Origin: an uncultured Pseudomonadota bacterium
GTDB taxonomy: Bacteria > Pseudomonadota > Alphaproteobacteria > UBA9219
NCBI GenBank assembly: GCA_903919315.1
Contig: CAIXHP010000014.1
Coordinates: 296 to 64,295, forward strand
Length of the DNA stretch: 64,000 nucleotides
Direction of reading: 5' to 3'
The stretch's first letter is position 1. Every line of letters begins with the position of its first letter. Both the position numbers and the translations under genes were made by a program. Positions 1 through 54,594 of this stretch are shown here, in pieces. A model generated the notes under the pieces. That model was not told the origin of the DNA. It made no database searches and was given only the letters and a program-made list of their open reading frames with translations.

Positions 1-1212
1 GGGTATCAGGCGCTGCGTGAAACCTCCACGGGTTCCAGCAACACAGCGGTCGGCTCTTTTGCGCTTCCTGTCAACACGAGTGGAACCGGCAACACGGCGG
101 TGGGACATAATGCTGGGGCTGTCCTGACGACCGGCAGTTCTAACACGGCGGTCGGAAGGTCGGCGCTCTGGTCCAACGTTACGGGCAACAGCAACACGGC
201 GTATGGATATTCGGCACTCTATTTTACAACGGGCCACACTAATACCGCGATTGGATCTGCTGCAGGACGGAGCATTGTGGCAGGTGGGGGCAATGTTGCC
301 ATCGGCTATTCCGCCCTTAATAATGCCACAAGCACAGCGTTTTCTGGCTCATACAATGTGGTGATCGGGACTTCGGTTGCCAGCACGACGCTGCCCACCG
401 GCAGCGGCTCCTGAAATATTCTGATCGGCACTAGCAGCGCGGTGGATACGCCTGCGGCGGGCACTAACGATTGGATGAACATCGGGAACACGATTTATGC
501 CGACATGGCGGGGATGCATGTGGGGATCGGGAGCGGGACGATCAATGCCGGCGCGGCGCTGGATTTGTCGTCGCAGACGAACTCGCTGCTGCTGCCCACG
601 GGGACGACCGGGCAGAGGCCGACGGCGACCAATGGGATGACGCGGTACAATTCGACCACCAATTTGCTTGAGTTTTATCAGAACGGCGCTTGGGTTAACT
701 ACACGACGGTGTCGGATGCTCGTTTGAAAACAGAGGTTCAGCCGGTGAAGGGCGCGCTGGCGATGGTGGACGAAATGAAGCCGGTTTACTTTAAATGGGA
801 TGCAAAGAATCCGCGCGCTGTCGGTCTGGGCGATGATCGCCGCCACGTCGGTTTCCTTGCGCAGGAATTGGAGACGGTGTTGCCGGAGGTCGTCAACACG
901 GGCGCGGATACCTATCGCAGCGTCGAATACGGCCAGATCGTCGCCGTGGCTGTGGGCGCGATCAAGGAGCTGAAGGCCGAGAACGACAACTTGCGGCAGC
1001 AGGTCGCGGCGTTGCAGGAGACGGCGGCGAAGGGGGCTTTGCGCCCCACGGAAGATTCAGCGGCACTGTCGATGCCTCAAACGGGCGGGGTCGTGCTGTG
1101 GGTCGCGGGGGGAGTCGGCGCGTTGCTGTTGTTCGGCATGGCGGGGCTTGGCACGGTTGTGCTGCGTCTGCGGCGCGATATGATGGCGATGAAGGACAAA
1201 CAGGCCGCCTAG
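1..1212 (+). pseudogene. 5'-partial fibre/adhesin-like repeat protein (YadA-head/Hep_Hag-like NTAxG repeats) with a C-terminal peptidase-S74 intramolecular chaperone domain and a hydrophobic tail. The frame is broken by one in-frame TGA at 412-414.
   Basis: Frame 1 is open from nt 1 (GYQALRETSTGSSNTAVGSFAL...). The repeat pattern continues straight across the stop (NVVIGTSVAS..GSGS*NILIGTSSAV). The stretch SDARLKTEV...HVGFLAQELETVLPEVV...IKELKAENDNLRQQ is typical of tail-fibre/endosialidase chaperone domains. A TM-like segment spans about 1081-1164. Confidence 0.6.
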
Positions 1213-5403: not shown

Positions 5404-5500
5404 GGATGCCCGCCTTCGCGGGCATGACGGAATTTGTGTTTGAATTCAATCACTTGTCGTCATCCCCGCGAAGGCGGGGATCCCGTTCGGTTTCTTCTTT
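5404..5500. repeat. Family A modular hairpin repeat (two GC-hairpins plus conserved spacer)
   Basis: Contains ATGCCCGC-cttc-GCGGGCAT and ATCCCCGC-gaag-GCGGGGAT. It is the reverse-oriented near-copy of 37705-37814. Confidence 0.85.
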
Positions 5501-5618: not shown

Positions 5619-6194
5619 ATGTTGGATAAAGCGGACTATGGCTATTTGTCGATGGCGCTGGTTGCCGCCATAGCGGTGCCTTACTGGCGGTTGATGTTTT
5701 TGGGCAAGACGAAACCCCATGTTTTTTCGTGGATCATCTGGGGCTTGACCGAGGGCATCGGCGCGGCGGGGCGTTACGCCGAGGAAGCGGGGCCGGGCAT
5801 GTGGGGCGATGCTCTTGGCGCGGTTTTCTGCTTTTCCGTTGCCGTGTTGGGCATCTTTTGGGGCGAGAAGCGGATCACGCGGAGCGATGTTGTGTTTTTT
5901 GTGGGGGCCTTGGCGGCGATTCCCCTTTGGTATTTCACGGCGGATCCGTTGACGGCGATCATCCTCGTGGTGGGCATCGATGTGGTCGGGTATTATCCGA
6001 CGGCGCGGAAGTCCTTCCTTCGGCCGCAGGAGGAAGCGACGTATGCCTATGCTCTTTACATCGTTGTGGCTGGTTTAGCCTTGGCCGCCAGCGAGACCTA
6101 TTCTTTCGCGACGATGCTGGCACCGATCACGATGATTGTCGGCAATACCTTGCTGGTGGGTATGATCTGGTGGCGACGCGCCGTTACAAGATGA
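5619..6194 (+). CDS. hypothetical multi-pass membrane protein
   Basis: Hydrophobic segments run throughout. I moved the start to ATG 5619 (GGGGGAG upstream) because the longer ORF's N-terminus is encoded by the family A repeat. Confidence 0.55.
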
Positions 6195-7500
6195 ATTTCG
6201 ACAGATCGACGTTTTTGGCGAAGTCGTTGAGGCGGGCTTGGACGTAGGCGGCGTCGATGGCGACGGCGGTGCCGGGTTTGTCGCTGGCATCAAAGCTGAC
6301 TTCTTCAAGCAGGCGTTCCAGCAACGTGTGCAGGCGGCGCGCGCCGATGTTTTCCACGCTGGCGTTGACCTCGGCGGCGAGGCGGGCCAGCTCGTCGATG
6401 GATTCCGGCGTAAAGGTCAGCGTCACCTGTTCGGTCGCCAACAGCGCCGTGTATTGTTTGATGAGGCTGGCTTCGGGTTCCGTTAGGATGCGTTTGAAGT
6501 CCTCGCGGGACAGGGCTTGCAGCTCGACGCGGATCGGCAGACGGCCTTGCAGTTCCGGCAGCAGGTCGCTCGGCTTCGCCAGATGGAACGCGCCCGACGC
6601 GATGAACAGGATGTGGTCGGTATGCACCATGCCGTATTTGGTGGACACGGTCGTGCCTTCGATCAGCGGCAACAGGTCGCGTTGCACGCCTTCGCGGCTC
6701 ACGTCGCCGCCGCCGCGAAATTCGCTGCCGCGCGAGGCGATTTTGTCGATTTCGTCGATGAATACGATGCCGTTCTGCTCGGCGTTGAGGATCGCCTCGG
6801 TCACCAGCTTGTCTTGATCCAGCAATTTGTCGGATTCTTCGGCCATCAGGACTTCGTGCGCGTCCTTGACGGTCAGCTTGCGGGTTTTGGTGCGCTGGCC
6901 AAAGGCTTTGCCGAACACGTCGCCCAGATTGATCATGCCCATCTGCGCTCCCGGCATGCCCGGCACGTCAAAGGTGGGCAAGCCGCCCGCGCCGGAGTCC
7001 TGAACCTGAATCTCGATCTCGCGGTCGTTCAGCTCGCCGTTGTGCAGCATGTGGCGGAATTTGGCGCGTGTTTCCGGCGTGGCGCTTTCGCCGACCAGCG
7101 CGTCGAGCACGCGCTCTTCGGCGGCGTGCTGCGCCTTGGCCGTCACGTTCTTGCGGTTCTTCTCGCGCGTGAGTTTGAGGGAAATTTCGATCAGGTCGCG
7201 GATAATCTGCTCGACATCGCGGCCCACATAGCCGACTTCGGTGAATTTCGTCGCTTCGACTTTCAGGAACGGGGCTTCGGCCAGCTTCGCCAGACGGCGC
7301 GCGATTTCGGTTTTGCCCACGCCGGTCGGGCCGATCATCAGGATGTTTTTGGGCAGGACTTCGTCGCGCAGAGCCTCTGGCAACTGCTGCCGCCGCCAGC
7401 GGTTGCGCAGGGCGATGGCCACGGCGCGTTTGGCGTCGTTTTGGCCGACGATATAGCGGTCGAGTTCGGCGACGGTTTCGCGGGGGGACAGATGGGTCAT
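6184..7500 (-). CDS. hslU: ATP-dependent protease ATPase subunit HslU
   Basis: N-terminus [40 protein letters not shown], Walker [16 protein letters not shown], and [10 protein letters not shown]. Confidence 0.97.
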
Positions 7501-10747: not shown

Positions 10748-11896
10748 ATGACTCGTCTCGCCATCTACATCCATTGGCCTTTCTGCGTTTCGAAATGCCC
10801 GTACTGTGATTTCAACAGCCATGTCGCGGATGCGGTGGATCATGCGGCGTGGGCGGCGGCGTATCGGCGCGAGTTGGCGCATTATGCCGCGTTGCTGCCG
10901 GGGCGGCGCGTCACCTCGGTGTTTTTCGGCGGCGGCACGCCTTCGCTGATGGCACCGCAGACGGTCGAAGCCGTTTTGCAAACCATCGCCGCGTCGTGGA
11001 CGGTGGCGGAGGATGTCGAGATTACGCTGGAGGCCAATCCCACCTCGGCGGAGGCGGAAAAATTCGCGGCGTTTCGCGCGGCGGGAGTCAATCGTTTGTC
11101 GCTGGGCGTGCAGTCGTTGCGTGACGACGCGCTGAAATTTCTGGGACGCGCCCATGATGCGGCGCAGGCGCGGCGGGCGTTGGAATGGGCGGCGCGGCAT
11201 TTTCCGCGTTACAGCTTTGATCTTATCTACGCGCGGCGTGATCAGATGCCTGAGGCTTGGGCGGCTGAGTTGCGCGAGGCTTTGGCGTTCGGCGCGTCGC
11301 ATATGTCGCTGTATCAACTGACCATCGAGCCGAACACGGTTTTTCACACGCTGGCGCGGCGCGATGCGGTGTTGACGGCGCGGGACGACGATGCGGCGGC
11401 GATGTTCGAGGCGACGAACGCGGCGATGGCCGAGGCGGGGCTTCCCGCTTACGAGATTTCCAATTACGCCGCGCCGGGTGCGGCCAGCCGCCACAATCTG
11501 ACCTATTGGCGCTATGAGCCGTATATCGGCATCGGGCCGGGGGCGCATGGCCGACGGCGCACGGAGGACGGAATCTATGCCACCGAAAACCACCGCGCGC
11601 CCGAAGCGTGGCTGCGGCAGGTGGCGGAACGCGGGCATGGCCTGAAGGTTGATGAAGCGCTGGATACGCTCACGGCGCAGCGCGAGGCATTGATGATGGG
11701 GCTGCGCCTCGTCGCCGGAATCGACGGCGCGGCGTGGCGGGAAAAATTCGGCGGTTCCGTCACCCAGTTCCTGCCGTCCGCCAAGCTGGCGCGGTTGCGG
11801 GCCGAGGGCTTGCTGTCGGACACGGGCGACGGCCTCCGCGCCACGCCGTCCGGCCTGCAACGCCTCAACGCGGTGTTGGCGTATTTGCTGGGGTGA
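10748..11896 (+). CDS. hemW: radical SAM haem chaperone HemW (HemN-like, oxygen-independent coproporphyrinogen oxidase family)
   Basis: LAIYIHWPFCVSKCPYCDFNSH carries the CxxxCxxC radical-SAM motif. The start is set at MTRLAIY. Confidence 0.9.
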   Translation: MTRLAIYIHWPFCVSKCPYCDFNSHVADAVDHAAWAAAYRRELAHYAALLPGRRVTSVFFGGGTPSLMAPQTVEAVLQTIAASWTVAEDVEITLEANPTSAEAEKFAAFRAAGVNRLSLGVQSLRDDALKFLGRAHDAAQARRALEWAARHFPRYSFDLIYARRDQMPEAWAAELREALAFGASHMSLYQLTIEPNTVFHTLARRDAVLTARDDDAAAMFEATNAAMAEAGLPAYEISNYAAPGAASRHNLTYWRYEPYIGIGPGAHGRRRTEDGIYATENHRAPEAWLRQVAERGHGLKVDEALDTLTAQREALMMGLRLVAGIDGAAWREKFGGSVTQFLPSAKLARLRAEGLLSDTGDGLRATPSGLQRLNAVLAYLLG

Positions 11897-11944
11897 TACG
11901 GACGCGCGGGGTCATGGCTATAAAACAAGATTTCGGCCATTGGC

Positions 11945-13786
11945 TCACGGATCCAATCTTTCTTCCTCGTTCGCCGAGACAGCGGGGCTTTCGAGATCCG
12001 GCTCGCCCTGATCGTCGACGATAAAACCGCCCGACTGAATCTTGAAAAGATTCGCGTAGAGTCCGTTTCTCGCGAGCAGTTCGGCGTGAGTGCCTTGCTC
12101 AACAATCTTTCCGTGATCGAAGACGAGGATGCGGTCGGCATCGAGTATTGTCGAAAGACGGTGGGCCACCATGATGGATGTGCGCCCCTGAATGAGGGTG
12201 TGCAGGGCCAATTGGATGGATTTTTCGCTTACGGAATCGAGCGAACTTGTCGCTTCGTCGAGAATGAGTATGGGGCGATCCGCCAACAGGGCGCGCGCGA
12301 TGGCCACGCGCTGCCGTTCGCCGCCGGATAGCTTCACGCCGCGCTCGCCGACGAAGGTATCGTACCGTTCCGGCAGACTCTGAATAAAGGCATCGATATG
12401 GGCTCGTTCGGCGGCGCGGCGGATGTCTTCGAGGCTTGCCTGCGGCCGGGCGTAAGCGATGTTTTCGCTTATCGCGCGGTGAAACAGAATAGGTTCTTGG
12501 GGAACCAACGCTATGTTGCTGCGCAAAGACTCTTGCGTGTGTTCGGCGATGTTCTGGCCGTCGATGGAAATGCTGCCGTGCTGAACATCATAGGCGCGTT
12601 GCAGCAAGCGCAGAAACGTCGTCTTGCCGCTGCCCGAATGGCCGACGAGGGCAATGCGTTCACCGGCCTTGATCGATAAAGTGAAATCCTCAAAAATCGG
12701 CTTCGACTTGCCGGGATAAGAGAAGGTAACGTGATTGAAGTCTATGGCTCCGTGGGGAACGGAAAGCGCTTTGGCTTCGGGTTTGTCGGTGATTTCCGGC
12801 TTTTGCCGCAAAAGGCCGATCACGGCGTGCAGGTCATACGAGCTCGTCAAGAGGTCGCGGATTAGGTACGCAAGCTCGCGTAAATATGACTGGAGAATGG
12901 TATAGGCCATAACGAGATAGGCCATGTCTTCGACGGAGGCTTTTCCCTTCAGAAAGTACCATGTGCCGCCGCCGAGCAGCAGCGCGAGCATGCCCACCAA
13001 AAGCGCATTCTGCGTCGTCCCGATCATCGTGCCCGTGGAATAGGCCTTGTGATTTTTCTCACGCAACGATTCCAATTGGTCGGCAAAAGAACGAATCTCG
13101 TGCTTTTCCTGCGCATAGGCCTTTGTCGTGGCAATGCCGGAAATGCTGTCCGCCAATTGCGCGACGGTCGTGTCTTGGGCGTTGGCGTAAACAGACTGCA
13201 CCGGCCCCGCTAGGCGCAGAACCAGCACCACGCTTACCCCGACCAGAAACACGACGTACAGACCGAGGAGAACGGCCAAGAGTGGAAACCGTAACGCAAG
13301 AAAGACTATGCTCCCCACCAAGATAATGGCGGTTGGCATAATGCGGTGGAAAAGGTGGTCTTGAAAAGGCTCGATGCGTGTGCGGGCGCGGGTGATCTTT
13401 GAAATAATCCCGCCGGTAAAATTGTTCGAAAAGAACTGCTCGGACAAACGATGCACATGGACGAAGGCATCGTTCATGAGGTCTTTAAAAAGGCGCGTTT
13501 CGAACTTGTTGTAAACAATATAGGAGCCCCACCGTAGGACGAGTTGCAGCGTGTAGATGCCGATGAACGCGCCCAGATACAGCAAAACCGTCGCCGCGCC
13601 CTTTTGTTCGCGCACGGCGCCAAGGAAAGCCGAAAGGCTGGTTGGAATGATGGTTTCAACGAACGCCGCGACAGAGAACAACGCAATAAACAGCGCCAGC
13701 TTTTTCGGCTGCCTGCGCCAGTAACCGGCCACGAACCGGAAAACATCGAAAAAAGACAGGTGCATTTTTTGTTCCGCGTTCAGCAT
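11945..13786 (-). CDS. ABC exporter, fused permease/ATPase (MsbA/ABCB-like)
   Basis: N-terminal 6-TM region, Walker A GHSGSGKTT, signature LSGGERQRVAIARAL, and Walker B ILILDEATSSLD. Start uncertain (13849, 13786 or 13765). Confidence 0.9.
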   Translation of the reverse strand: MLNAEQKMHLSFFDVFRFVAGYWRRQPKKLALFIALFSVAAFVETIIPTSLSAFLGAVREQKGAATVLLYLGAFIGIYTLQLVLRWGSYIVYNKFETRLFKDLMNDAFVHVHRLSEQFFSNNFTGGIISKITRARTRIEPFQDHLFHRIMPTAIILVGSIVFLALRFPLLAVLLGLYVVFLVGVSVVLVLRLAGPVQSVYANAQDTTVAQLADSISGIATTKAYAQEKHEIRSFADQLESLREKNHKAYSTGTMIGTTQNALLVGMLALLLGGGTWYFLKGKASVEDMAYLVMAYTILQSYLRELAYLIRDLLTSSYDLHAVIGLLRQKPEITDKPEAKALSVPHGAIDFNHVTFSYPGKSKPIFEDFTLSIKAGERIALVGHSGSGKTTFLRLLQRAYDVQHGSISIDGQNIAEHTQESLRSNIALVPQEPILFHRAISENIAYARPQASLEDIRRAAERAHIDAFIQSLPERYDTFVGERGVKLSGGERQRVAIARALLADRPILILDEATSSLDSVSEKSIQLALHTLIQGRTSIMVAHRLSTILDADRILVFDHGKIVEQGTHAELLARNGLYANLFKIQSGGFIVDDQGEPDLESPAVSANEEERLDP

Positions 13787-37637: not shown

Positions 37638-37814
37638 GTCATCGCCGCGAAGGCGGCGATCTATCACCGGTTTGTTGCTTTGGGGCGTTCATAGCCGTTG
37701 CCCTAAAAATGATCGTGAAGAAGAAACCAAACGGGATCCCCGCTTTCGCGGGGATGACGATAAGGAATTGAATTGAAACACAAATCCTGTCATGCCCGCG
37801 AAGGCGGGCATCCC
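37638..37814. repeat. Family A composite repeat (three hairpin modules)
   Basis: GTCATCGCCGCGAAGGCGGCGATC, GGGATCCCCGCTTTCGCGGGGATGAC, GTCATGCCCGCGAAGGCGGGCATCC, with the conserved spacer GAATTGAATTGAAACACAAATCC. Confidence 0.85.
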
Positions 37815-46964: not shown

Positions 46965-47050
46965 GGCGGGGATGACGGTAGATGGTTGAATTCACACGAA
47001 AATTACGTCATGCCCGCGAAGGCGGGCATCCCGTTTGGTTCCTTCTTTAT
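46965..47050. repeat. Family A hairpin repeat
   Basis: GGGGATGAC...GTCATGCCCGCGAAGGCGGGCATCCCGTTTGGTTCCTTCTTTATGATC, directly after the gatB stop. Confidence 0.85.
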
Positions 47051-47058
47051 GATCCTTT

Positions 47059-48105
47059 TTAGCGGGCAACGTTTTTATTCCCGGCATCGCCCTTGCGGAG
47101 CGCCCCCCTCCCTGACCCTCCGCGCGAGGGGGAGGGGATTGCTGTGTCGGCTCTTTTGGGCCAACTTTCCAACAATGTCGCCATATCTTTCGGCATCGGA
47201 GTCGTGAAGCGCATGGCTTTGCCGGTGCGGGGGTGGATGAAGGTGAGTTCGGCGGCGTGGAGGGCTTGCCGCGAAAAGCCCGCGACCTTGCCGCCCCGCC
47301 CATAGGTCGGATCGCCGACCAAGGGATGCCCGATATGCGCCATATGCACGCGGATCTGGTGCGTCCGCCCTGTGGCCAGCTTGCATTCGATCAGGCTCGC
47401 CGTGGTCGCGCCCGCGCCCAACCGCTCCACGAGTTTGTAATGCGTCAAAGCCGCCTTGCCGCCGTGGCGCACCACCGCCATTTTCTTGCGGTCGCGGGGA
47501 TGGCGGCCAATCGCGCCTTCGACCGACCCGGCGACGAGATTGAGCGCGCCCCAGACCAAGGCCTGATAAACGCGGCTCAGGCTCCTGTCGGCGAACTGGC
47601 GCGACAAGGCTTGATGCGCGGCATCGTGTTTGGCCACCACCATGAGGCCGCTGGTGTCCTTGTCGAGGCGATGGACGATGCCGGGCCGCGCCACGCCGCC
47701 GATGCCGCTCAGGCTGTCGCCGCAATGCGCCAACAGGGCGTTGACGAGCGTGCGATCCCGATTTCCGGCGGCGGGATGCACCACCAGCCCCGCAGGCTTA
47801 TCGACGACCAGCAGATCGGCATCTTCATAAACGATCCGCAGCGGCATGGCCTGAGCCTCGGGCAAAGCGGGTTCCGGCGGCAGAAGCGTGACGGTGTAAA
47901 CTTCGCCCGCATGAACCTTGTCGCTGGCATCCAGCGCGGCGTTTCCTGCGCGCGCCACCAGCCCCGCCTTGATCAACCGCTGCACCCCCGCCCGCGAAGG
48001 CGGAGTCTGCGAAGGCGCGGCCACAACCCAAGCCTCCACCAACGCCCGATCAAGCCGCGAAGCTTCCAGCCCTGCCGTTATAAAAATAGTAAGAGTCTCC
48101 GTCAT
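47059..48105 (-). CDS. rluD: 23S rRNA pseudouridine synthase (RluD/RluA family) with a repeat-encoded C-terminal extension
   Basis: S4-like N-terminus, HRLDKDTSGLMVVAK and GRTHQIRVHMAHIGHPLVGD. The last 30 or so aa (..AIPSPSRGGSGRGALRKGDAGNKNVAR) are encoded by a family B unit. Confidence 0.88.
   Translation of the reverse strand: MTETLTIFITAGLEASRLDRALVEAWVVAAPSQTPPSRAGVQRLIKAGLVARAGNAALDASDKVHAGEVYTVTLLPPEPALPEAQAMPLRIVYEDADLLVVDKPAGLVVHPAAGNRDRTLVNALLAHCGDSLSGIGGVARPGIVHRLDKDTSGLMVVAKHDAAHQALSRQFADRSLSRVYQALVWGALNLVAGSVEGAIGRHPRDRKKMAVVRHGGKAALTHYKLVERLGAGATTASLIECKLATGRTHQIRVHMAHIGHPLVGDPTYGRGGKVAGFSRQALHAAELTFIHPRTGKAMRFTTPMPKDMATLLESWPKRADTAIPSPSRGGSGRGALRKGDAGNKNVAR
47083..47142. repeat. 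Family B solo end, inside the 3' end of rluD
   Basis: GCCCTTGCGGAGCGCCCCCCTCCCTGACCCTCCGCGCGAGGGGGAGGGGATTGC, near-identical to the right end of 13864-14019. Confidence 0.8.
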
Positions 48106-48166: not shown

Positions 48167-48541
48167 ATGCGCCGCACCGCCCTCATCCTTTTAGCTGCCA
48201 CGTTGTTTGCGGGGAGTGTTCAGGCATCGGACTATGAACCCATTTTTGGAAGAGCGACCTGCGGCGCGGCATTCTCCTGCATGGCCGGCATGAAAAACGG
48301 ATTGGACATCAACAAAGTCATTGCCACGGCCAATTCGTGCGTGTCCCAAAACTTTGGCTTTGTCAGCAGCAGCAGTCTTTTCTTGGATGAAATGGGATTA
48401 AATGGCTCAAATTGTCTAACCGCCAAGCCCCCCGTTGCAAAGAGTGAGCGCGGCCGGACAATGACCCCGCGCTGCTGCATCGTGCCCGCAAAAGTTAGCG
48501 GCACATGTCAGGTCTCATGCGAACTTTACGGCATTAGGTAA
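48167..48541 (+). CDS. secreted Cys-rich small protein (124 aa, 10 Cys)
   Basis: AGGAG upstream and signal peptide MRRTALILLAATLFAGSVQA. No recognisable family. Confidence 0.55.
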   Translation: MRRTALILLAATLFAGSVQASDYEPIFGRATCGAAFSCMAGMKNGLDINKVIATANSCVSQNFGFVSSSSLFLDEMGLNGSNCLTAKPPVAKSERGRTMTPRCCIVPAKVSGTCQVSCELYGIR

Positions 48542-48582
48542 GTTCCCCCGCGCATACACCGTTACCCGCAATAATAATTAAA

Positions 48583-48617
48583 GCCGCCCCCCACAATGGA
48601 GGAGCGGCTGATTTTTC
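48583..48617. terminator. hairpin between convergent genes (weak, possibly bidirectional terminator)
   Basis: AGCCGC(CC)...(GG)AGCGGCT followed by GATTTTT. The complement is followed by TTTAATT. Confidence 0.4.
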
Positions 48618-48624
48618 GCGACCG

Positions 48625-50058
48625 TTACTGGTGTGCGCGTTTCTGAAGACGTTTAATGTCCCGCGCCTGCTCGTTCAGTTGCTCGCGCAACTTATCGTTC
48701 GCTGCTTTTAACTCGTTGACCGCCCCAATCAGTGGCCCTATGAACCCCATATAATCAACGCCTTTGTAGCCTTCTCCAATTCCATGAACCAACTCAGGAT
48801 AAACTTTTTCAACATCCTGCGCTATGACCCCCATTTTTTTCTCATTGTTCTGGTTCAAGGCAAAACTGACAGCATTGATCTTTGAGAGATCTTCCAACGG
48901 ATGTTCTATGGGTTTGATGTCATGCTTCAACCGAATGTCCGAAGGATCGTATATGAACGTCTCTGCCCACAAAATGTTGGCGTAGAGAAGCCCAGAAATG
49001 GTCTGGTTACCATTGACCTGTACTGCATAAGGGCAAGGGTCCGCGGGGACGTTTTTCTTGCACGGGATTACGGCTGGCGGATAGACAGGGCCATTGATGA
49101 CCACGGCCGAAGAAGCATCCGCAGGAACCATATTCATGACGAGCTGCTTCAACCCCATTATCGCTCCCGATGAGGAAGAACCACCAGATGCGTCCCCGAA
49201 TATCGTCCCCCCCTGCAGATTAAGCGGGCTCGCCTTCATGTTAAAGCTATGGGTGCCATCCATGTGGGTGTCAGCTTGCAGCGTGTTAAAGTTTGGTGTC
49301 GGCGGTGCTCCTACGTTTCCTGCTGTGATCAGACTGGTGTCCCGCGCCAGCCACGGATCGGCTGGGGTGGCACCTAGACCAACCACGGTGCGCGAAGCAA
49401 CCGCGCTAAAAACGGCGGTGGGAAAACCATACCCGCCGCTGAGCGCTGCAGCCGTAGGGCTCACGTTCCATGATCCGTAGGCACCGCAAGCTAAGCCCAA
49501 GCCACCGCAGACATCCACCGCGTAAACAAACCCGCCGTCCCCACCAATCATGCTGGCGATGCGTCCCCCCGACGAATCAGGAATCACGGTGGAGCCTGCC
49601 GCCGCCGAATTGGTGCGAATCATAAACGAGTAGTTTTGCTGTGGCATGGTACCGGCGGTCAGAATCTGTATTGCAAAAGGTTGTCCATAAGAATTGACAG
49701 TAGCCGATGTGAATCCCGGAGGAAGAAAGTCGCAGAATCCATGCGGGGCCGTACCCGCAGGCGGCAGTCCGGCGCATCCCGGACCGGTCGGCAAGGGGAG
49801 CGTATAATTGGCGCTGGGGCCGATGGTACCGCTGAGAAGGCCAACTCCCTCGCCGCTGGCCAAATACCCCCGCACCGCAGCGATCAGTTGCTTGTGTTGA
49901 TCCGCAGCGTTCTGATCGCGCAACTGGGTGTTGGCTCCGGCGATGAGTCGCCACAGTCCGGCGAACAACAGCGACGACACGGCCAAAACAATCGCCAACT
50001 CGACCAAGGTGAAACCACGGCCCGCGCGGCGGCGCATACCCAATTTCTGCAACATCAT
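48625..50058 (-). CDS. chimeric protein: type IV prepilin-type N-terminus, about 330-aa Gly-rich body, and C-terminal peptidase-S74 intramolecular chaperone domain
   Basis: GGGAGA SD. MRRRAGRG|FTLVELAIVLAVSSLLFAGLW has Gly-1, Phe+1 and Glu+5. The last 105 aa (SDIRLKHDIKPIEHPLEDL...MGVIAQDVEKVYPELV...VNELKAANDKLREQL) are paralogous to 712-1020. Confidence 0.75.
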   Translation of the reverse strand: MMLQKLGMRRRAGRGFTLVELAIVLAVSSLLFAGLWRLIAGANTQLRDQNAADQHKQLIAAVRGYLASGEGVGLLSGTIGPSANYTLPLPTGPGCAGLPPAGTAPHGFCDFLPPGFTSATVNSYGQPFAIQILTAGTMPQQNYSFMIRTNSAAAGSTVIPDSSGGRIASMIGGDGGFVYAVDVCGGLGLACGAYGSWNVSPTAAALSGGYGFPTAVFSAVASRTVVGLGATPADPWLARDTSLITAGNVGAPPTPNFNTLQADTHMDGTHSFNMKASPLNLQGGTIFGDASGGSSSSGAIMGLKQLVMNMVPADASSAVVINGPVYPPAVIPCKKNVPADPCPYAVQVNGNQTISGLLYANILWAETFIYDPSDIRLKHDIKPIEHPLEDLSKINAVSFALNQNNEKKMGVIAQDVEKVYPELVHGIGEGYKGVDYMGFIGPLIGAVNELKAANDKLREQLNEQARDIKRLQKRAHQ

Positions 50059-50114
50059 TGTCTTGTCTCCCTGTCCAAAAAAAACTTATTCCGTCCAGCA
50101 AACGCCGCAGCCTA

Positions 50115-50723
50115 TCACGGCGCGCCTATGATTCCCAAAGACCCTGTCGCGACAGGCATCGGCACCGGCACAGCCATTCCCGTATGGGTCACCAAAACTT
50201 TGAACGTCCCCTGCATCTGAACCGTGCCAAACAGCGCCGGTGGCAGCTCTGTGTTCCGGAGCTGCCGGTCAAGCTCGCTCAACGTATAGCCGACGGGCGG
50301 CACGAGCACCGGTGCCGAAGCGTTTCCGCCGGGGGGCGGCGGCACATAGGTCAAAACATAACGCGCTCCGCCCGATGTATAGTAAACTGAGTTCCACGCA
50401 TACGCCGTGTCGTTATATCCCGCAGGAAGGGGGTCGGGAACAGTGCTGTGGCTCAAGGGGCTGGGGCAAGGGTTTATGCCGTAAACCACACGAGGAGAAG
50501 GAGTCAACAAGCAAGGCCCGGCTATTGCAAACCCATGCGCCAACGTTTTTCCCGAACTGTGCCAAGTGATCATGATCTCGGCGATGGATTTTTGGTTGGC
50601 GAAGATGCGGGCGACCTGCAGCAGGTGTACTTCGGTGTACAACCCGATGATCGACAACAGCAGGAAGATGAACGCGAACAAATACATGCAAAAAACCAAC
50701 CCTCGTGGCTGCGCCCCGAACAC
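50115..50723 (-). CDS. hypothetical protein with a single N-terminal hydrophobic helix and a Pro-rich body
   Basis: LVFCMYLFAFIFLLLSIIGLY, then a Pro-rich extracytoplasmic-looking region. Start uncertain (GTG 50723 or ATG 50687). Confidence 0.5.
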   Translation of the reverse strand: MFGAQPRGLVFCMYLFAFIFLLLSIIGLYTEVHLLQVARIFANQKSIAEIMITWHSSGKTLAHGFAIAGPCLLTPSPRVVYGINPCPSPLSHSTVPDPLPAGYNDTAYAWNSVYYTSGGARYVLTYVPPPPGGNASAPVLVPPVGYTLSELDRQLRNTELPPALFGTVQMQGTFKVLVTHTGMAVPVPMPVATGSLGIIGAP

Positions 50724-50789
50724 CGCGCGCTGATACTAGCTTACCCGCCGATAATTAACAAATCCCGATTTACGCGTCAAAGACGACAA

Positions 50790-50835
50790 AGCCCCCGGCA
50801 TCTGGCCCACCAAAGCAGGCCCGATGCCGGGGGCT
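50790..50835 (-). terminator. 13-bp-stem hairpin downstream of the 184-aa gene (possible terminator or attenuator)
   Basis: AGCCCCCGGCATC...GATGCCGGGGGCT. On the minus strand it is followed by TTTGTCGTCTTT. Confidence 0.35.
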
Positions 50836-50872
50836 GTCCGAACCGCAGCCTTTTAAGGCTTTGTTAACCGCG

Positions 50873-51397
50873 TCAAAAAGCACAAAGCGCGTAGTGTTGC
50901 GCAATCCGGTGCACGAGCCCATCCACCAACGCCTCGCGGCGCGTCGGCAGTCCGAATTTGCCGTGCGCAATCCCGTCATAGAACGCGCCCTCCACTTTCT
51001 CATACAACCGGTTAACCGGCACACCGTTCTTAGGCGCGACCACCATCGTCAATTGGCGACGTTCGCGATTCACGAAGCCGGAAAAGGTCACATCCCCAAG
51101 TCCTGCCGGAAGTTGCGCCTTCAAGCGGTGTTGCGCCATCTGGGCGACCATCTTTTCCTGTTCCTTGGTCAGACCCTTTCCCACAGGAAGACCAAGAAAC
51201 ATCTGTGCTTCCTCCATCTGAACCGTGATAAGCACGGCGTTCGCTCTGGCGGAAGGCACCTGATGGTAACCGGGGGCAGAATCAATCACCGAGACCCATG
51301 CGTTCTTTTCAAGCCGTGCTCTGGCGACAGCGCCAAAATAAGTGGAACGGGCGAACACTCGGGCCGCCTTACGCATTTCCGTTAAGGGCATCATCAT
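50873..51397 (-). CDS. hypothetical soluble protein (about 174 aa)
   Basis: AGAGGA just upstream of an ATGATGATG start. No recognisable motif. Confidence 0.5.
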   Translation of the reverse strand: MMMPLTEMRKAARVFARSTYFGAVARARLEKNAWVSVIDSAPGYHQVPSARANAVLITVQMEEAQMFLGLPVGKGLTKEQEKMVAQMAQHRLKAQLPAGLGDVTFSGFVNRERRQLTMVVAPKNGVPVNRLYEKVEGAFYDGIAHGKFGLPTRREALVDGLVHRIAQHYALCAF

Positions 51398-51554
51398 AAT
51401 CCTCTGTTTTTTAAATCCCGGCCTCAATTGGGCGTGGGACGCATTCTAGCACCGCGCCCCCACGCCAAAAAGGGCTTTCAATGCTTTCATATCCCCGCTC
51501 TTTGTGTCTGCCCAGAAACTTGTCGTTTGTTCACAATGAGTTATGAAAGGAACG

Positions 51555-51667
51555 GTCATCCCCGCGAAGGCGGGGATCCATCTCCTGTAGAATGAAAAGC
51601 GGCGATCTGGAAAAATTGCGCTCAAGCCCGTCACCGGGTGATGGTTCCCCGCCTTCGCGGGGATGAC
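51555..51667. repeat. Family A element (about 113 bp, hairpin at each end)
   Basis: GTCATCCCCGCGAAGGCGGGGATCCATCTCCTGT ... GGTGATGGTTCCCCGCCTTCGCGGGGATGAC. Confidence 0.85.
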
Positions 51668-51824
51668 CTTATTTTAGCGATTGTTTTTGCTTTTTAAGTT
51701 TCCGGACGGACACTTAACCACCCCGAACCAAGGCCTCAATTCTTCCAAAGGTTTGACAGAGGCGCGGTTTCATGGCAGAGGACTGCGCCTTGATTAAGAA
51801 GCTCAATTCAGGAGGATACACACA

Positions 51825-52189: not shown

Positions 52190-52320
52190 AAGGGGAGGGG
52201 GCGTTCCGCAAGGGCAATGTTGGAGAAAATGAAATTCCCTGACCGTTATCCTTTTCCAACAGACTACACCGCGCCCGGTCGTTCTCCCCCCTCCCTGACC
52301 CTCCCCACGAGGGGGAGGGA
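52190..52320. repeat. Family B MITE-like element, inverse orientation, one end truncated
   Basis: The reverse complement aligns with 13864-14019 (TCCCTCCCCCTCGTGGGGAGGGTCAGGGAGGGGGGAGAACGACCGGG...GGATAACGGTCAGGGAA...TTGCCCTTGCGGAACGCCCCCTCCCC). Confidence 0.75.
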
Positions 52321-52364
52321 ATTCTATCGCGCACCATCCCGTTCGTTTCGCAAAGGGTGAACTG

Positions 52365-52943: not shown

Positions 52944-54200
52944 ATGCCCGCCGCCCCGCGCGTTCCCTTCAAGAATCCGGTCGTCGAATGGGTTGACGTG
53001 AGGTTGCCGCTGTTCAGTCTGTGGCGCGATCGCTATGCGATGATGCCGGTGCCGCGCAATCTCAACGGGTGGTGGGTGTCCGGCGCTCTGGCGTTGTTCA
53101 CGCTCGCGGTGATGATCGTCAGCGGCGTTTTTCTGGCAATGCACTACACGCCGACGACCGCGCAAGCCTTCGCCTCGGTCGAGCGCACCATGCGCGAAGT
53201 CAATTGGGGTTGGCTGCTCCGCGCGGTTCATATGAACGGCGCGTCGCTGTTTTTCGCCATCGTCTATGCGCACATTCTCCGCAGCGTCTATTACGGCTCA
53301 TACAAGCGCCCGCGTGAATTGCTGTGGCTGCTGGGTGTCGTGCTGTTCCTGCTGATGATGGCGACGGCCTTCATGGGCAGCGTGTTGCCGTGGAGCCAGA
53401 CAGGCTATTGGAGCGCCACCGTCGTCGCCAACCTGTTCAGGGCCATCCCGTTCGTTGGCGAGCCGCTCGTGACATGGCTGATCGGCGGCCCGGAGGTGGG
53501 CGAGGCGACGCTGCGCCGTTTCTTCGCGCTCCATTACCTGCTGCCGTTCGCGATGATCGGTGTGGCGTTTTTGCATGTCGCGGCCCAACACGTCGCGGGC
53601 GCGAACAATCCGCTGGGCATCGACCCCAAAAGCCCGCAGGACACCGTGCCGTTTCATCCCCGTTATACGAGCCGCGACCTGTTCGGGCTGGCCGTGTTCG
53701 TCTTGGTCTTTGCCGCCATCGTGTTCTTTGCGCCCGCCGCCTTTGTCGCGCCCGCCAGCGACATCCCCGCCGACCCGATGACCACGCCGGACGTCATCGT
53801 GCCCGCGTGGTATTTCCTGCCCTTTTTCGCCATGTTGCGCTCTGTCGGCGATCTGGTCGTGCCCTTTACCGCCATCGTGCTGATCCCCGCCCAGCTGGGC
53901 GGCGTGCTGGCGCTGTTCGGCGCGTTGCTGACGTTGCTGCTGCTGCCGTGGCTGGATCGTTCGCCCGTGCGCTCGGCGGTGTTTCGCCCCCTTTACAAAA
54001 AGCTGTTCTGGTTGCTGGTGCTGGACCTCGCGCTGCTGGGCTATGTCGGCGCGCAAGAGCCGGAGGGGCTGTGCCGCCTGCTCGGCCGACTGGCGACCGC
54101 CTATTACTTCCTCCATTTCCTGATCTTTCTCCCCCTGTTGCCCCGCATCGAAAAACCCCAGCCTTTGCCGAGCAGCATCGCGGAGGCGGTGAGGGAATGA
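52944..54200 (+). CDS. petB: cytochrome b (divergent: PAWY instead of PEWY)
   Basis: WLLRAVHMNGASLFFAIVYAHILRSVYYGSY, RFFALHYLLPF...FLHV, and His at ORF positions 96/110/197/211. IVPAWYFLPFFAMLR. Confidence 0.92.
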   Translation: MPAAPRVPFKNPVVEWVDVRLPLFSLWRDRYAMMPVPRNLNGWWVSGALALFTLAVMIVSGVFLAMHYTPTTAQAFASVERTMREVNWGWLLRAVHMNGASLFFAIVYAHILRSVYYGSYKRPRELLWLLGVVLFLLMMATAFMGSVLPWSQTGYWSATVVANLFRAIPFVGEPLVTWLIGGPEVGEATLRRFFALHYLLPFAMIGVAFLHVAAQHVAGANNPLGIDPKSPQDTVPFHPRYTSRDLFGLAVFVLVFAAIVFFAPAAFVAPASDIPADPMTTPDVIVPAWYFLPFFAMLRSVGDLVVPFTAIVLIPAQLGGVLALFGALLTLLLLPWLDRSPVRSAVFRPLYKKLFWLLVLDLALLGYVGAQEPEGLCRLLGRLATAYYFLHFLIFLPLLPRIEKPQPLPSSIAEAVRE

Positions 54201-54448
54201 AACGCACCGCCGCCCTGCTATTGCTCGCCCTCGCGCTAGCGCCCATCCCCGCCGGAGCCAGTGCGCCAAGCCCCACAACTGCCGTCCACGAAGCCGAAGC
54301 GGCGCAAGCCCCGCTGTCTCTCCTCTGGGATGCCGAACCACTACAGGCGACGCGTTTGCGCACCGGCGCGGGCGTTCTGGCCTTCCTCGCCGTCTTTGCC
54401 GTCCTCCTGTACATCCTGCAACGTCGCGCATGGGCGAAACGGTCTTAA
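54197..54448 (+). CDS. 83-aa 'headless' cytochrome c1 remnant (signal peptide plus c1-type C-terminal anchor, no CxxCH)
   Basis: ATGA overlap with the petB stop. MKRTAALLLLALALAPIPAGASA..., then WDAEPLQATRLRTGAGVLAFLAVFAVLLYILQRRAW resembles the conserved C-terminal W-x-AEP...R..G-TM end of c1. Confidence 0.6.
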   Translation: MKRTAALLLLALALAPIPAGASAPSPTTAVHEAEAAQAPLSLLWDAEPLQATRLRTGAGVLAFLAVFAVLLYILQRRAWAKRS

Positions 54449-54518
54449 CCAAGGAACGGGGAAACGGGGCTGGACTCGCGCCAACAGAGCTGCTAAACAG
54501 CGCGTCTTCATACGGTGT

Positions 54519-54594
<76 letters not shown>

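Follow-up and report, generated by a model that had tools for sequence, protein, structure and literature searches.

We found that the window, a 64,000-nucleotide stretch of DNA from an uncultured alphaproteobacterium, carries a gene whose product, here termed the fiber pilin, is very probably a PilV-type pilin fused to a phage-type S74 domain. The overall best explanation, which we hold at a probability of roughly 0.6, is that it is a minor pilin of modular build, belonging to a type IVb system that resembles the IncI/R64 thin pilus, and that in it a phage-type stalk and S74 domain replace the variable end. An earlier, sequence-only reading had proposed a pilus-tip trimeric fiber with phage-type folding, and this stands as the best reading, since the gene ends a type IVb pilus operon in six relatives and its N-terminal 260 residues are homologous to PilV. 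By analogy with phage fibers, the protein probably trimerizes and cleaves itself through its S74 domain, and we lean, with slightly better than even odds, toward a role as tip adhesin. The gene and the parts of its product are:

48625..50058, minus strand: fiber-pilin gene (477 aa), comprising a PilV-type minor prepilin, a tail-fiber-like stalk and a C-terminal S74 intramolecular chaperone domain
50014..50058, minus strand: leader peptide MMLQKLGMRRRAGRG (aa 1–15), with a predicted prepilin-peptidase cut after Gly15 and a mature N terminus at Phe16
49372..50013, minus strand: pilin module (aa 16–229), an alpha1 helix and a globular alpha/beta head, assigned by PilV constant-region homology and the model
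49246..49371, minus strand: flexible linker (aa 230–271) from pilin head to fiber module, with pLDDT <50 and low conservation
48943..49245, minus strand: hypervariable tail-fiber-like stalk/tip (aa 272–372), assigned by variability, model and PHROG matches; predicted distal receptor-binding end after cleavage
48628..48942, minus strand: S74 intramolecular chaperone auto-processing domain (aa 373–477), assigned by Pfam, PDB profiles and Foldseek; predicted 105-aa released fragment

The open reading frame is real, as the sequence-only reading had it, and the AlphaFold2 monomer model ordered its parts, from N to C terminus, as alpha1 helix with globular head, disordered linker, extended stalk and S74 fold. 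More than 120 full-length relatives were found in uncultured alphaproteobacterial MAGs, where NCBI labels them "tail fiber domain-containing protein"; conservation was assessed in an alignment of 66 relatives with 36–58% identity. The fiber pilin is a widespread but unstudied variant that occurs in uncultured alphaproteobacteria.

The sequence around the predicted cut, ...RRAGRG↓FTLVELAIVLAVSSLLFAGLW (arrow, cut), shows the class III signal-peptide pattern of a short hydrophilic leader closed by Gly, then ~21 hydrophobic residues with Glu at +5, and the proposed prepilin leader with Gly−1, Phe+1 and Glu+5 was borne out by scores above cut-off for both N_methyl (Pfam; 25.7 bits vs. 21.2, aa 11–35) and TIGR02532 (21.6 vs. 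16.3) in the window protein. N_methyl was matched by 65 of the 66 relatives and the motif G↓FTL(V/I)E was present in 64; T17, L18 and E20 were invariant, and G15 and F16 were at least 90% conserved. In the model, the alpha1 helix occupied residues 18–67 and the alpha/beta head residues 84–226, with pLDDT mostly >90, and the PDB profile matches included pilin alpha1 helices.

PilV (Shufflon_N, PF04917) serves both as a minor pilin and as the tip adhesin in the conjugative type IVb thin pili of IncI1/IncI2 plasmids (R64, TP114) and PAPI-1. Residues 7–263 of the fiber pilin aligned to annotated PilV over 241 columns (hhalign with the family profile, 99.3%, E = 4e-20), with a pairwise match at E = 1e-17 and a tblastn match to a Bosea plasmid pilV at E = 7e-9, and the pilin module contained the IPDxxGGRIxxxxGxxGGF and PWLAR motifs of the PilV constant region. 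PF04917 itself was matched by six of the 66 relatives (best 3e-8); the window protein fell below the curated threshold, with no match at E ≤ 1. Besides homology over the N-terminal ~260 residues, the two share a conserved head followed by a C-terminal region that varies and presumably determines the target, and the C terminus of PilV is known to set recipient specificity (PMC9045228; PMC12282955). They differ in what this region is, a tail-fiber-type stalk plus S74 here as opposed to Shufflon_N only in the Bosea PilV examined, and in location: PilV is found on enterobacterial plasmids, whereas the fiber gene of uncultured alphaproteobacteria is chromosomal and lies beside rluD and rpoH-like genes. 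No shufflon was detected near the fiber gene, either as alternative or silent C-terminal cassettes or as sfx-like repeats, and no recombinase gene was noted among its neighbors.

Within the stalk, residues 272–345 showed the lowest conservation of the whole protein, with a top-residue frequency of 0.30, and the most indels, with 24.5 inserted residues per sequence, which fits the expectation for a specificity determinant. In the model, the stalk was an extended chain without secondary structure (pLDDT 60–89), and it is from this segment of a monomer model that we infer a trimeric stalk. PHROG tail-fiber families matched aa ~281–475 (best E = 6e-27), with matches starting at aa 281–317, and a Thermus phage match spanned residues 273–476; in some phage families the similarity extends past the predicted cut, by ~50–100 residues on its N-terminal side.

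The proposed C-terminal chaperone domain was likewise confirmed, with a Peptidase_S74 score of 54 bits (Pfam cut-off 22, aa 373–425) and matches in all 66 relatives, and the pilin–S74 fusion is both real and conserved. The domain opens with SDIRLK and closes with a long helix (436–476). S373, D374 and K378 were invariant, R376 was at least 90% conserved across the 66 relatives, and the SDxRxK motif was present in 65 of 66 sequences; by analogy with other S74 domains, Ser373 would be the nucleophile and Lys378 the base. PDB profiles matched 6f45 (5e-15), 8jov (2e-13), the MyRF ICA domain 7dc3 (6e-7) and 3gud (5e-5), and Foldseek superposed the S74 model on 7dc3 with E = 8e-5, TM 0.65 and an rmsd of 1.8 Å; 218 viral structures of fiber proteins also matched the S74 part at E ≤ 1e-3. 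The fold and the SDxRxK motif are shared with phage tail fibers, tailspikes and neck appendages (K1F endosialidase, the long tail fiber distal subunit 6f45, the neck appendage 3gud) and with eukaryotic MyRF, and, as in phage fibers, S74 lies at the extreme C terminus behind a fiber-like stalk. The difference lies at the N terminus, where a type IV pilin module takes the place of a virion-attachment domain as the anchor, and in the gene being cellular.

A rival reading takes the gene for a prophage or tailocin tail-fiber gene with a chance hydrophobic start. The C-terminal ~120 residues matched 798 phage records, and both the PHROG matches and the NCBI name of the relatives point the same way. 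However, phage records covered at most 43% of the protein, the IMG/VR viral contigs yielded no relative, and the N-terminal 260 residues are homologous to PilV. Phage structural genes were absent from all 15 neighborhoods, whose genes were housekeeping, pilus or Dot/Icm genes, in line with the earlier remark that the window holds no phage structural gene, and the REP-like repeats close to the locus recur throughout the genome and do not represent att sites. We regard this explanation as effectively refuted.

The combination of pilin and S74 (IPR012902–IPR030392) was listed by Raynaud et al. in 2021 and, with 29 proteins in Dataset S1, ranks sixth by frequency among their modular pilin types (PMC8179133). 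That list gives the architecture only, without a link to PilV, type IVb operons, trimerization or the ORF2 and Cys-rich partners described below. The architecture was therefore not wholly undescribed, as had been supposed, but the family was indeed uncharacterized: it was catalogued in 2021 and has never been characterized. In the same work S74 was read as a predicted peptidase (PMC8179133), and the domain might accordingly be a trans-acting enzyme shown on the pilus, a new enzymatic function for the filament; it is filed among the peptidases in MEROPS and Pfam and has kept its Ser/Lys dyad. Yet the solved homologs that it matched carry "intramolecular chaperone" or "ICA domain" in their titles and sit at C-terminal fiber ends, exactly as S74 here follows its fiber-like stalk. 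In the cases studied, moreover, S74 is a single-turnover, cis-acting chaperone that is set free upon cleavage, and a self-cleaved domain would be detached from the pilin. We consider a displayed peptidase very improbable. A related fusion is UCP91044.1, in which PilV is joined to a phage tail collar domain (PF07484; Milman et al. 2023, PMC9881135). Both place a phage tail receptor-binding-type domain behind a PilV constant region, but that protein carries Collar and not S74, is a target of programmed inversion and is known from a single locus, whereas the fiber pilin forms a large family.

The adjacent features are:

50115..50687, minus strand: ORF2 (190 aa), a bitopic membrane protein, conserved upstream partner of the fiber gene
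50751..50780, minus strand: promoter-like site TTGACG-18-AATTAT, 5′ of ORF2, from a consensus scan only, such sites being no commoner than shuffle expectation
48167..48541, plus strand: convergent partner (124 aa), secreted, with a signal peptide and eight invariant Cys, conserved downstream of the fiber gene
48582..48609, minus strand: GC-rich 11-pair hairpin separating the stop codons of the two convergent genes, a probable bidirectional terminator

The sequence-only reading had described a three-gene orphan cluster made up of the fiber gene, an upstream 202-aa protein and a further protein of ~174 aa. This grouping did not hold. The first of the two upstream genes is ORF2. Since every aligned homolog begins with MYL, its start is most likely the ATG at 50687, for a length of 190 aa. 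Usable upstream DNA was available at 17 loci, and at 14 of these ORF2 lay directly 5′ of the fiber gene; across the gap of 56 nt the two are probably cotranscribed. Its 49 relatives are all annotated as hypothetical, none with a Pfam domain; the model (pLDDT 86.5, pTM 0.80) showed an N-terminal helix of ~50 residues and a beta-sheet domain, with no significant PDB fold match, and the protein is without a class III leader. The second upstream gene, ORF3 (173 aa), is an orphan as claimed, matching only itself among 1.84 billion representative proteins, but it is set apart from the ORF2 and fiber genes by its own terminator-like hairpin: it is an unrelated ORFan and no member of the cluster.

The convergent Cys-rich secreted protein, by contrast with ORF3, did accompany the fiber gene, with homologs within ~2 kb 3′ of it at 10 loci (tblastn); at L041 and L042 similar-sized, unaligned genes occupied this position. 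It has eight cysteines in 124 aa, the 10 reported before being found only in an over-long ORF, and no Pfam, NCBIfam or PHROG family was assigned to it. The gene is mostly convergent and not inside the operon. Together, the conserved module is ORF2, the fiber pilin and the convergent 8-Cys secreted protein.

Fifteen loci, the window included, had enough flank for a count of genomic contexts. In six (L003, L036, L037, L038, L041 and L043), and in relatives only, the fiber gene was, like pilV in a pilN-O-P-Q-R-S...V-type operon, the final gene of a complete PilN-O-P-Q-R-S type IVb operon, in the order secretin (Secretin_N_2), PAP_PilO, a ~300-aa protein (PilP family in L003), T2SSE, T2SSF, PilS/bundlin pilin and fiber gene. 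This operon lay directly upstream, at the same rluD-linked position, and a sigma-factor gene then followed in four. At one further locus, L005, the gene adjoined DotM/IcmP, IcmJ/DotN, TraQ-IncI1-like and TrbI genes, and thus IncI/Dot-Icm type IVB genes, another trait shared with PilV systems. Among the carriers, some have IncI/Dot-Icm type IVB systems and some are labeled Micavibrio-like predators. At the remaining eight loci, from diverse MAGs, the gene stood alone.

The window belongs to this last group: 5′ of the fiber gene lie ORF2, the ORFan, an FYDLN_acid gene and petAB. Secretin, ATPase and platform genes were not found in the window (tblastn), as the earlier reading had stated, nor in the called-gene Pfam tables for the rest of the 76-kb contig, and genes for a major pilin or a prepilin peptidase are likewise missing from both. 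If active, the system would have to use pilus machinery encoded at another place in the genome. The lower GC content seen by eye was also confirmed, at 0.560 for the cluster against a window mean of 0.608 (within the lowest 0.8% of same-size windows), with GC3 of 0.61–0.70 compared to 0.70–0.84 in the genes on either side. The window copy could therefore be a stranded remnant, its operon lost or rearranged and its ORF2, fiber and Cys-rich genes drifting in no pilus; the operon held by six relatives at the same rluD-linked site, the missing machinery and the low GC3 would all agree with this. The three genes are nevertheless intact, the window protein keeps every invariant residue of the family, a good Shine-Dalgarno sequence (GGGAGA) lies 8 nt 5′ of the fiber-pilin ATG, and ORF2 has its promoter-like site. 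The same intact module is kept at all eight stand-alone loci, which argues that it works with machinery encoded elsewhere, and we judge a remnant to be unlikely.

About equally unlikely, in our estimate, is that the class III signal serves only membrane anchoring or pseudopilus-type export, making the protein an envelope-anchored trimeric fiber or part of a T2SS-like exporter of the Cys-rich protein. The leader, G↓FTLVE, is closer to type IVa pilins and T2SS pseudopilins than to classic type IVb prepilins, leader and alpha1N gave weak GspH and ComGD matches, adjacent pilus genes are missing at many loci, and small proteins such as TcpF and CofJ are exported by type IVb systems (PMC9565799, PMC6048534). 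On the other hand, the machinery that adjoins the gene in relatives matches that of the R64 thin pilus (Secretin_N_2, PAP_PilO, PilP, PilS/bundlin) and not a Gsp set, the head domain is PilV-homologous, and the Cys-rich gene usually lies outside the operon.

The sequence-only reading had also seen two different assembly logics in a pilin fused to a trimerization domain. They are compatible, because tip minor pilins of type IVb systems are known homotrimers: CofB of ETEC CFA/III caps its pilus as a homotrimer and binds secreted CofJ (PMC6048534), and TcpB of V. cholerae TCP is a homotrimeric tip minor pilin whose system secretes TcpF (PMC9565799). Both initiate assembly and cap the pilus, and both, like the fiber pilin, consist of a pilin module, a flexible linker and a C-terminal part, in their case beta-rich domains that homotrimerize at the tip. 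The 8-Cys protein recalls CofJ and TcpF as a small secreted protein encoded alongside the pilin. CofB and TcpB appeared neither in the PDB profile search (E ≤ 1) nor in the Foldseek list, so the analogy is architectural only; they also trimerize without a cleavable chaperone, whereas the fiber pilin is predicted to trimerize through S74 and then discard it. Speculatively, and with the odds against it, ORF2 may serve the trimer as a membrane anchor or adaptor and the Cys-rich protein may be tip-bound or pilus-exported like CofJ and TcpF.

For the type IVb minor pilin that we favor, we propose the following course. The prepilin would enter the inner membrane, where prepilin peptidase would remove the 15-residue leader after Gly15, as the motifs suggest. 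Three membrane-anchored protomers would then come together through their periplasmic S74 domains, as in endosialidases, phage tail fibers and MyRF, and by the same analogy these domains would template residues ~272–372 into an intertwined trimeric stalk before S74 excises itself at Ser373 through the Ser373/Lys378 dyad, freeing the 105-aa fragment. The homotrimer with its three pilin heads might then form the initiation and tip complex below which PilS-type major pilins polymerize, compare CofB and TcpB, and the hypervariable stalk end would be displayed as a target-cell-binding tip, the role of the shufflon-switched C termini in IncI PilV.

Both domain models thus passed, no prophage was found and the family proved to be uncharacterized, leaving the earlier proposal unrefuted and, as an interpretation, partly supported. 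Beyond it, we tentatively suggest, as a possibility that we hold less probable than its negation, that a phage-derived cell-targeting device sits on the pilus, that S74 trimerization and cleavage are a periplasmic checkpoint licensing type IVb pilus initiation, and that the hypervariable trimeric tip selects target cells. If so, a PilV-type pilin would have captured both the receptor-binding tip of a tail fiber and the S74 module that folds it, and the 8-Cys protein might cap this tip in the way that CofJ caps CofB. Such a use of an intramolecular chaperone domain in pilus biogenesis would be a first and would give direct evidence for conjugative PilV adhesins acting as trimers, and uncultured alphaproteobacteria would use the device to contact targets for conjugation, effector delivery or predation.

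The sequence-only reading of this locus had proposed that a prepilin leader and a phage-type S74 chaperone domain are fused in a single protein, and profile searches against Pfam and NCBIfam bore this out, with both modules above curated thresholds. The genes concerned are as follows.

48167-48541, plus strand: Cys-rich gene, convergent
48625-50058, minus strand: fibre pilin gene, present as described, product of 477 aa
50115-50687, minus strand: ORF2, upstream partner
50873-51394, minus strand: ORF3, 173 aa

The fibre pilin matched N_methyl at aa 11-35 (25.7 bits vs. a cut-off of 21.2), TIGR02532 (21.6 vs. 16.3) and Peptidase_S74 at aa 373-425 (54 bits vs. 22), and aa ~281-475 gave matches to PHROG tail-fibre families (best E = 6e-27). 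Among solved structures, the fibre-family profile recovered intramolecular-chaperone domains, i.e., the phage long tail fibre distal subunit 6f45 (5e-15), the putative tail fiber protein 8jov (2e-13), the MyRF ICA domain 7dc3 (6e-7) and the neck appendage protein 3gud (5e-5), and its N-terminus matched pilin alpha1 helices. An AlphaFold2 model (mean pLDDT 82.6) was obtained, and conservation was assessed as mean top-residue frequency.

Segments of the fibre pilin in the AlphaFold2 model
Residues 18-67: alpha1 helix, 50 residues
Residues 84-226: globular head, confident
Residues 230-271: disordered linker
Residues 272-370: extended segment without secondary structure, pLDDT 60-89
Residues 373-476: S74 fold with long terminal helix

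Conservation of the fibre pilin (mean top-residue frequency)
Residues 15-40: alpha1N, 0.85, the most conserved segment
Residues 81-229: head, 0.54
Residues 272-345: 0.30, the most variable segment, with 24.5 inserted residues per sequence
Residues 373-435: S74 core, 0.61

The modelled S74 part superposed on the MyRF ICA domain with a TM score of 0.65 and an rmsd of 1.8 Å, and 218 predicted viral fibre proteins also superposed with it. In an alignment of 66 fibre pilins, T17, L18, E20, S373, D374 and K378 were invariant, and G15, F16 and R376 were conserved in at least 90%; S74 was matched by 66/66 of these relatives and N_methyl by 65/66. Since both domains and the key residues are kept across the 66 relatives, the fusion is old, with both halves under selection. 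The pilin-S74 fusion is clean, conserved and mechanistically suggestive.

The phage matches to the fibre pilin are confined to its C-terminal 25-43%, which argues against a prophage or tailocin origin, as do the lack of phage genes across 15 neighbourhoods and of any relative in IMG/VR; that the fibre gene is a prophage fibre is therefore extremely improbable. The architecture itself has been catalogued, as IPR012902-IPR030392, the sixth most frequent modular pilin type with 29 proteins, where it was read only as "peptidase activity" (Raynaud et al. 2021; PMC8179133). We consider a true trans-acting peptidase highly unlikely; the profile matches in solved structures are to intramolecular chaperones. 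Full-text literature searches found no paper combining S74 or an intramolecular chaperone with a pilin, nor did we find one linking the family to PilV, type IVb operons, trimerisation, ORF2 or the Cys-rich partner, and a single fusion of PilV to a phage tail collar has been reported (PMC9881135). The claim of an undescribed system thus stands only in part: the architecture was catalogued in 2021 (29 proteins), but no characterisation was found. Already known are the parts of the fusion, the idea that a type IVb tip pilin can be trimeric, and the catalogued architecture.

Nor is the fibre gene an orphan, as had been supposed: homology searches retrieved >120 full-length relatives with 36-58% identity, nearly all with both domains. 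They appear in their sources as "tail fiber domain-containing protein" or as [quoted passage not shown] so that each current label captures just half of the protein. Among species-representative genomes, all carriers were uncultured MAGs, labeled Alphaproteobacteria, Rhodospirillaceae, proteobacterium or Bdellovibrionales; the last label may be explained by the placement of Micavibrio, an alphaproteobacterial predator, under Bdellovibrionales in the NCBI taxonomy. One MAG contig (L020) holds two fibre-pilin sequences ~5 kb apart, a C-terminal piece at 396-803 and a near-full copy at 5818-7086, so that some genomes carry an additional allele or a fragment.

The genomic setting of the relatives was read as a full operon from six long contigs (L003, L036, L037, L038, L041 and L043). 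In all six, genes for a secretin (Secretin_N_2), PAP_PilO, a protein of ~300 aa (PilP family in L003), the T2SSE ATPase and the T2SSF platform precede two or three pilins of the PilS/bundlin type, a protein of ~195 aa and a homologue of ORF2; the fibre pilin is the last gene, followed by a small convergent Cys-rich gene. A rluD-like gene lies beyond the latter in five of the six, with a sigma-factor gene next in four. In gene order this equals the IncI/R64 thin-pilus operon, the fibre gene taking the pilV position. The protein between the PilS-type pilins and ORF2 is conserved (~190-200 aa), bears a hydrophobic helix at its N-terminus and matches no Pfam family; it lies at 8421-9002 in L003, has equivalents in L036, L037, L038, L041, L043, L007 and L014, and is absent from the window.

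The N-terminal half pointed to the same kinship. Pairwise alignment with an annotated PilV from a Bosea plasmid extended to residue 266 (E = 1e-17), and the fibre-family profile matched this protein over 241 columns with 99.3% probability (E = 4e-20). The Bosea gene lies a few genes from the end of a TcpQ-secretin-PilO2-ATPase-platform operon; its product carries Shufflon_N and lacks S74, whereas the fibre pilin family carries S74. Six relatives matched Shufflon_N directly, and a Pfam search with the window fibre pilin gave no match to it. Shufflon-like switching at the fibre gene was ruled out, there being neither inverted cassettes nor silent C-terminal copies.

A different setting was observed in L005, where the ORF2-fibre-Cys-rich module follows TrbI/DotG, TraQ-IncI1-like, IcmJ/DotN and DotM/IcmP genes, and in eight loci whose upstream sequence extends for at least 10 kb (the window, L042, L010, L011, L014, L015, L017 and L018), where the module stands alone amid housekeeping genes, without machinery. 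The window gene is one member of the pilin-S74 variant, in this stand-alone configuration. Set beside these loci, a non-pilus anchored fibre or a pseudopilus-type export component is conceivable but unlikely; the six operons place the fibre pilin with pilus genes. Overall, the earlier interpretation as a pilus fibre is partly supported, and the observation itself is confirmed.

That the window lacks pilus machinery was borne out by tblastn with L003 and L005 proteins, which found no pilus or type IVB machinery, and the remainder of the contig, including its ends, holds no such genes. We give a low probability to the window copy being a stranded remnant in this genome; the module also stands alone elsewhere. 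The rluD linkage is retained in the window (RluD 67% identical). Upstream of ORF2 lie an ORFan, a FYDLN_acid gene and petAB. The GC dip seen by eye was upheld (0.560 for the cluster vs. 0.608 for the window, lowest 0.8% of same-size windows), and GC3 is below that of neighbouring genes. Palindromes at ~47.0 and ~51.6 kb were rejected as genomic island borders, since they belong to a dispersed REP-type family; this family (core CCCGCGAAGGCGGG) has 11 matches in the window vs. 0.14 expected, with copies at 5409-5478, 37739-37808, 47000-47031, 51554-51668 and elsewhere, often as inverted pairs ~50 nt apart. Another repeat, CCCCCCTCCCTGACCCTCC...GAGGGGGAGGG, has two copies, 47103-47140 and 52286-52323, and a further, inverted one lies at 52191-52219. 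In the stretch 54197-54594 (plus strand), downstream of petA and petB, the cytochrome c1 gene seems to encode just 83 aa with a weak Cytochrom_C1 match; directly after it comes the sole tRNA found, tRNA-Lys(CTT) at 54519-54594, and next an unannotated ~250-aa ORF. Truncation or splitting of petC could explain this, as could an insertion at the tRNA.

The three-gene cluster first proposed included ORF3, but the conserved module consists instead of ORF2, the fibre gene and the Cys-rich gene. ORF3 matched only itself among 1.84 billion representative proteins, gave no match in Pfam, NCBIfam or PHROG, and was rejected as a component, having no homologue at any related locus and being separated from ORF2 by a promoter-like site and by a hairpin whose tail is T-rich. 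This strict ORFan sits where relatives have the pilus operon. ORF2 homologues lie directly upstream of the fibre gene in 14 of the 17 loci with usable upstream DNA. The 202-aa ORF described earlier exists, with its N-terminal helix, but probably starts at 50687 and has 190 aa, because all aligned homologues begin MYL. A word-seeded search with ORF2 alone found one relative, while an alignment of the loci sequences as seed found 49, all annotated hypothetical and without Pfam domains. Its model (pLDDT 86.5, pTM 0.80) combines a ~50-residue N-terminal helix with a beta-sheet; despite this, a leaderless pilin is unsupported, as Foldseek found no significant PDB neighbour (best E = 0.67). The "10-Cys secreted mini-protein" proved convergent and equipped with a signal peptide, but has 124 aa and eight invariant cysteines in the alignment. 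Its gene recurs downstream in at least 10 loci, usually convergent; in L010 (11810-12088) and L014 (11719-12039) it shares the fibre gene's strand, and in L043 the downstream convergent gene (11474-12178) encodes 234 aa, not ~125 aa.

A second cellular S74 protein was observed at the window's edge. A giant fibre-like ORF (1-1212, plus strand, continuing in L040 1-5415; >1,538 aa, running off the contig end) has GxxNTAxGxxAL-type repeats, no Pfam match and housekeeping neighbours. It is broken by an in-frame TGA at 412-414, which could be a pseudogene lesion, a sequencing error or read-through. Following it, a 256-aa ORF matches PTL_trimer and Peptidase_S74 (61 bits), its S74 domain, coiled coil and C-terminal TM helix giving a MyRF-like topology.

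In studied phage proteins, the S74 domain seeds the assembly of the stalk before it into a trimer, and afterwards cuts itself off at the SDxRxK Ser. By analogy, self-removal at Ser373 would yield a mature pilin spanning residues 16-372, its distal end formed by the hypervariable stalk. The sequence-only reading had seen pilin and trimer logics as conflicting; this conflict falls away, minor pilins at type IVb tips being known to form homotrimers (PMC6048534, PMC9565799). At the pilus tip, CofB assembles into a trimeric initiator complex that anchors secreted CofJ (PMC6048534), TcpB and TcpF behave similarly (PMC9565799), and the C-terminus of PilV in IncI plasmids determines recipient specificity through LPS binding (PMC9045228, PMC12282955). 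Since CofB and TcpB are trimers and the PilV C-terminus confers specificity, we propose that the fibre pilin may be a trimeric PilV-type tip adhesin whose specificity module would be a phage-type fibre folded by S74. A PDB profile search and Foldseek gave no homology to CofB or TcpB. Beside the observed motifs, homologies and contexts, cleavage, trimerisation, tip location and target binding are what we infer.

Should this mechanism be right, tip trimers would be the working form of PilV-type adhesins in conjugative-type type IVb pili, as they are for CofB and TcpB, and bacteria would have borrowed a phage tail-fibre folding module, beyond the receptor-binding domain alone, for a pilus tip. 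This would be a clear case of modules being exchanged between the proteins by which phages recognise their hosts and the organelles that serve recognition between bacterial cells. It would also correct the sole published reading of the pilin-S74 architecture, as a peptidase activity on pili. So far the family is confined to alphaproteobacteria that are uncultured, a number of them carrying Dot/Icm-like systems, and it may therefore be a marker of a lifestyle based on cell contact in these lineages.
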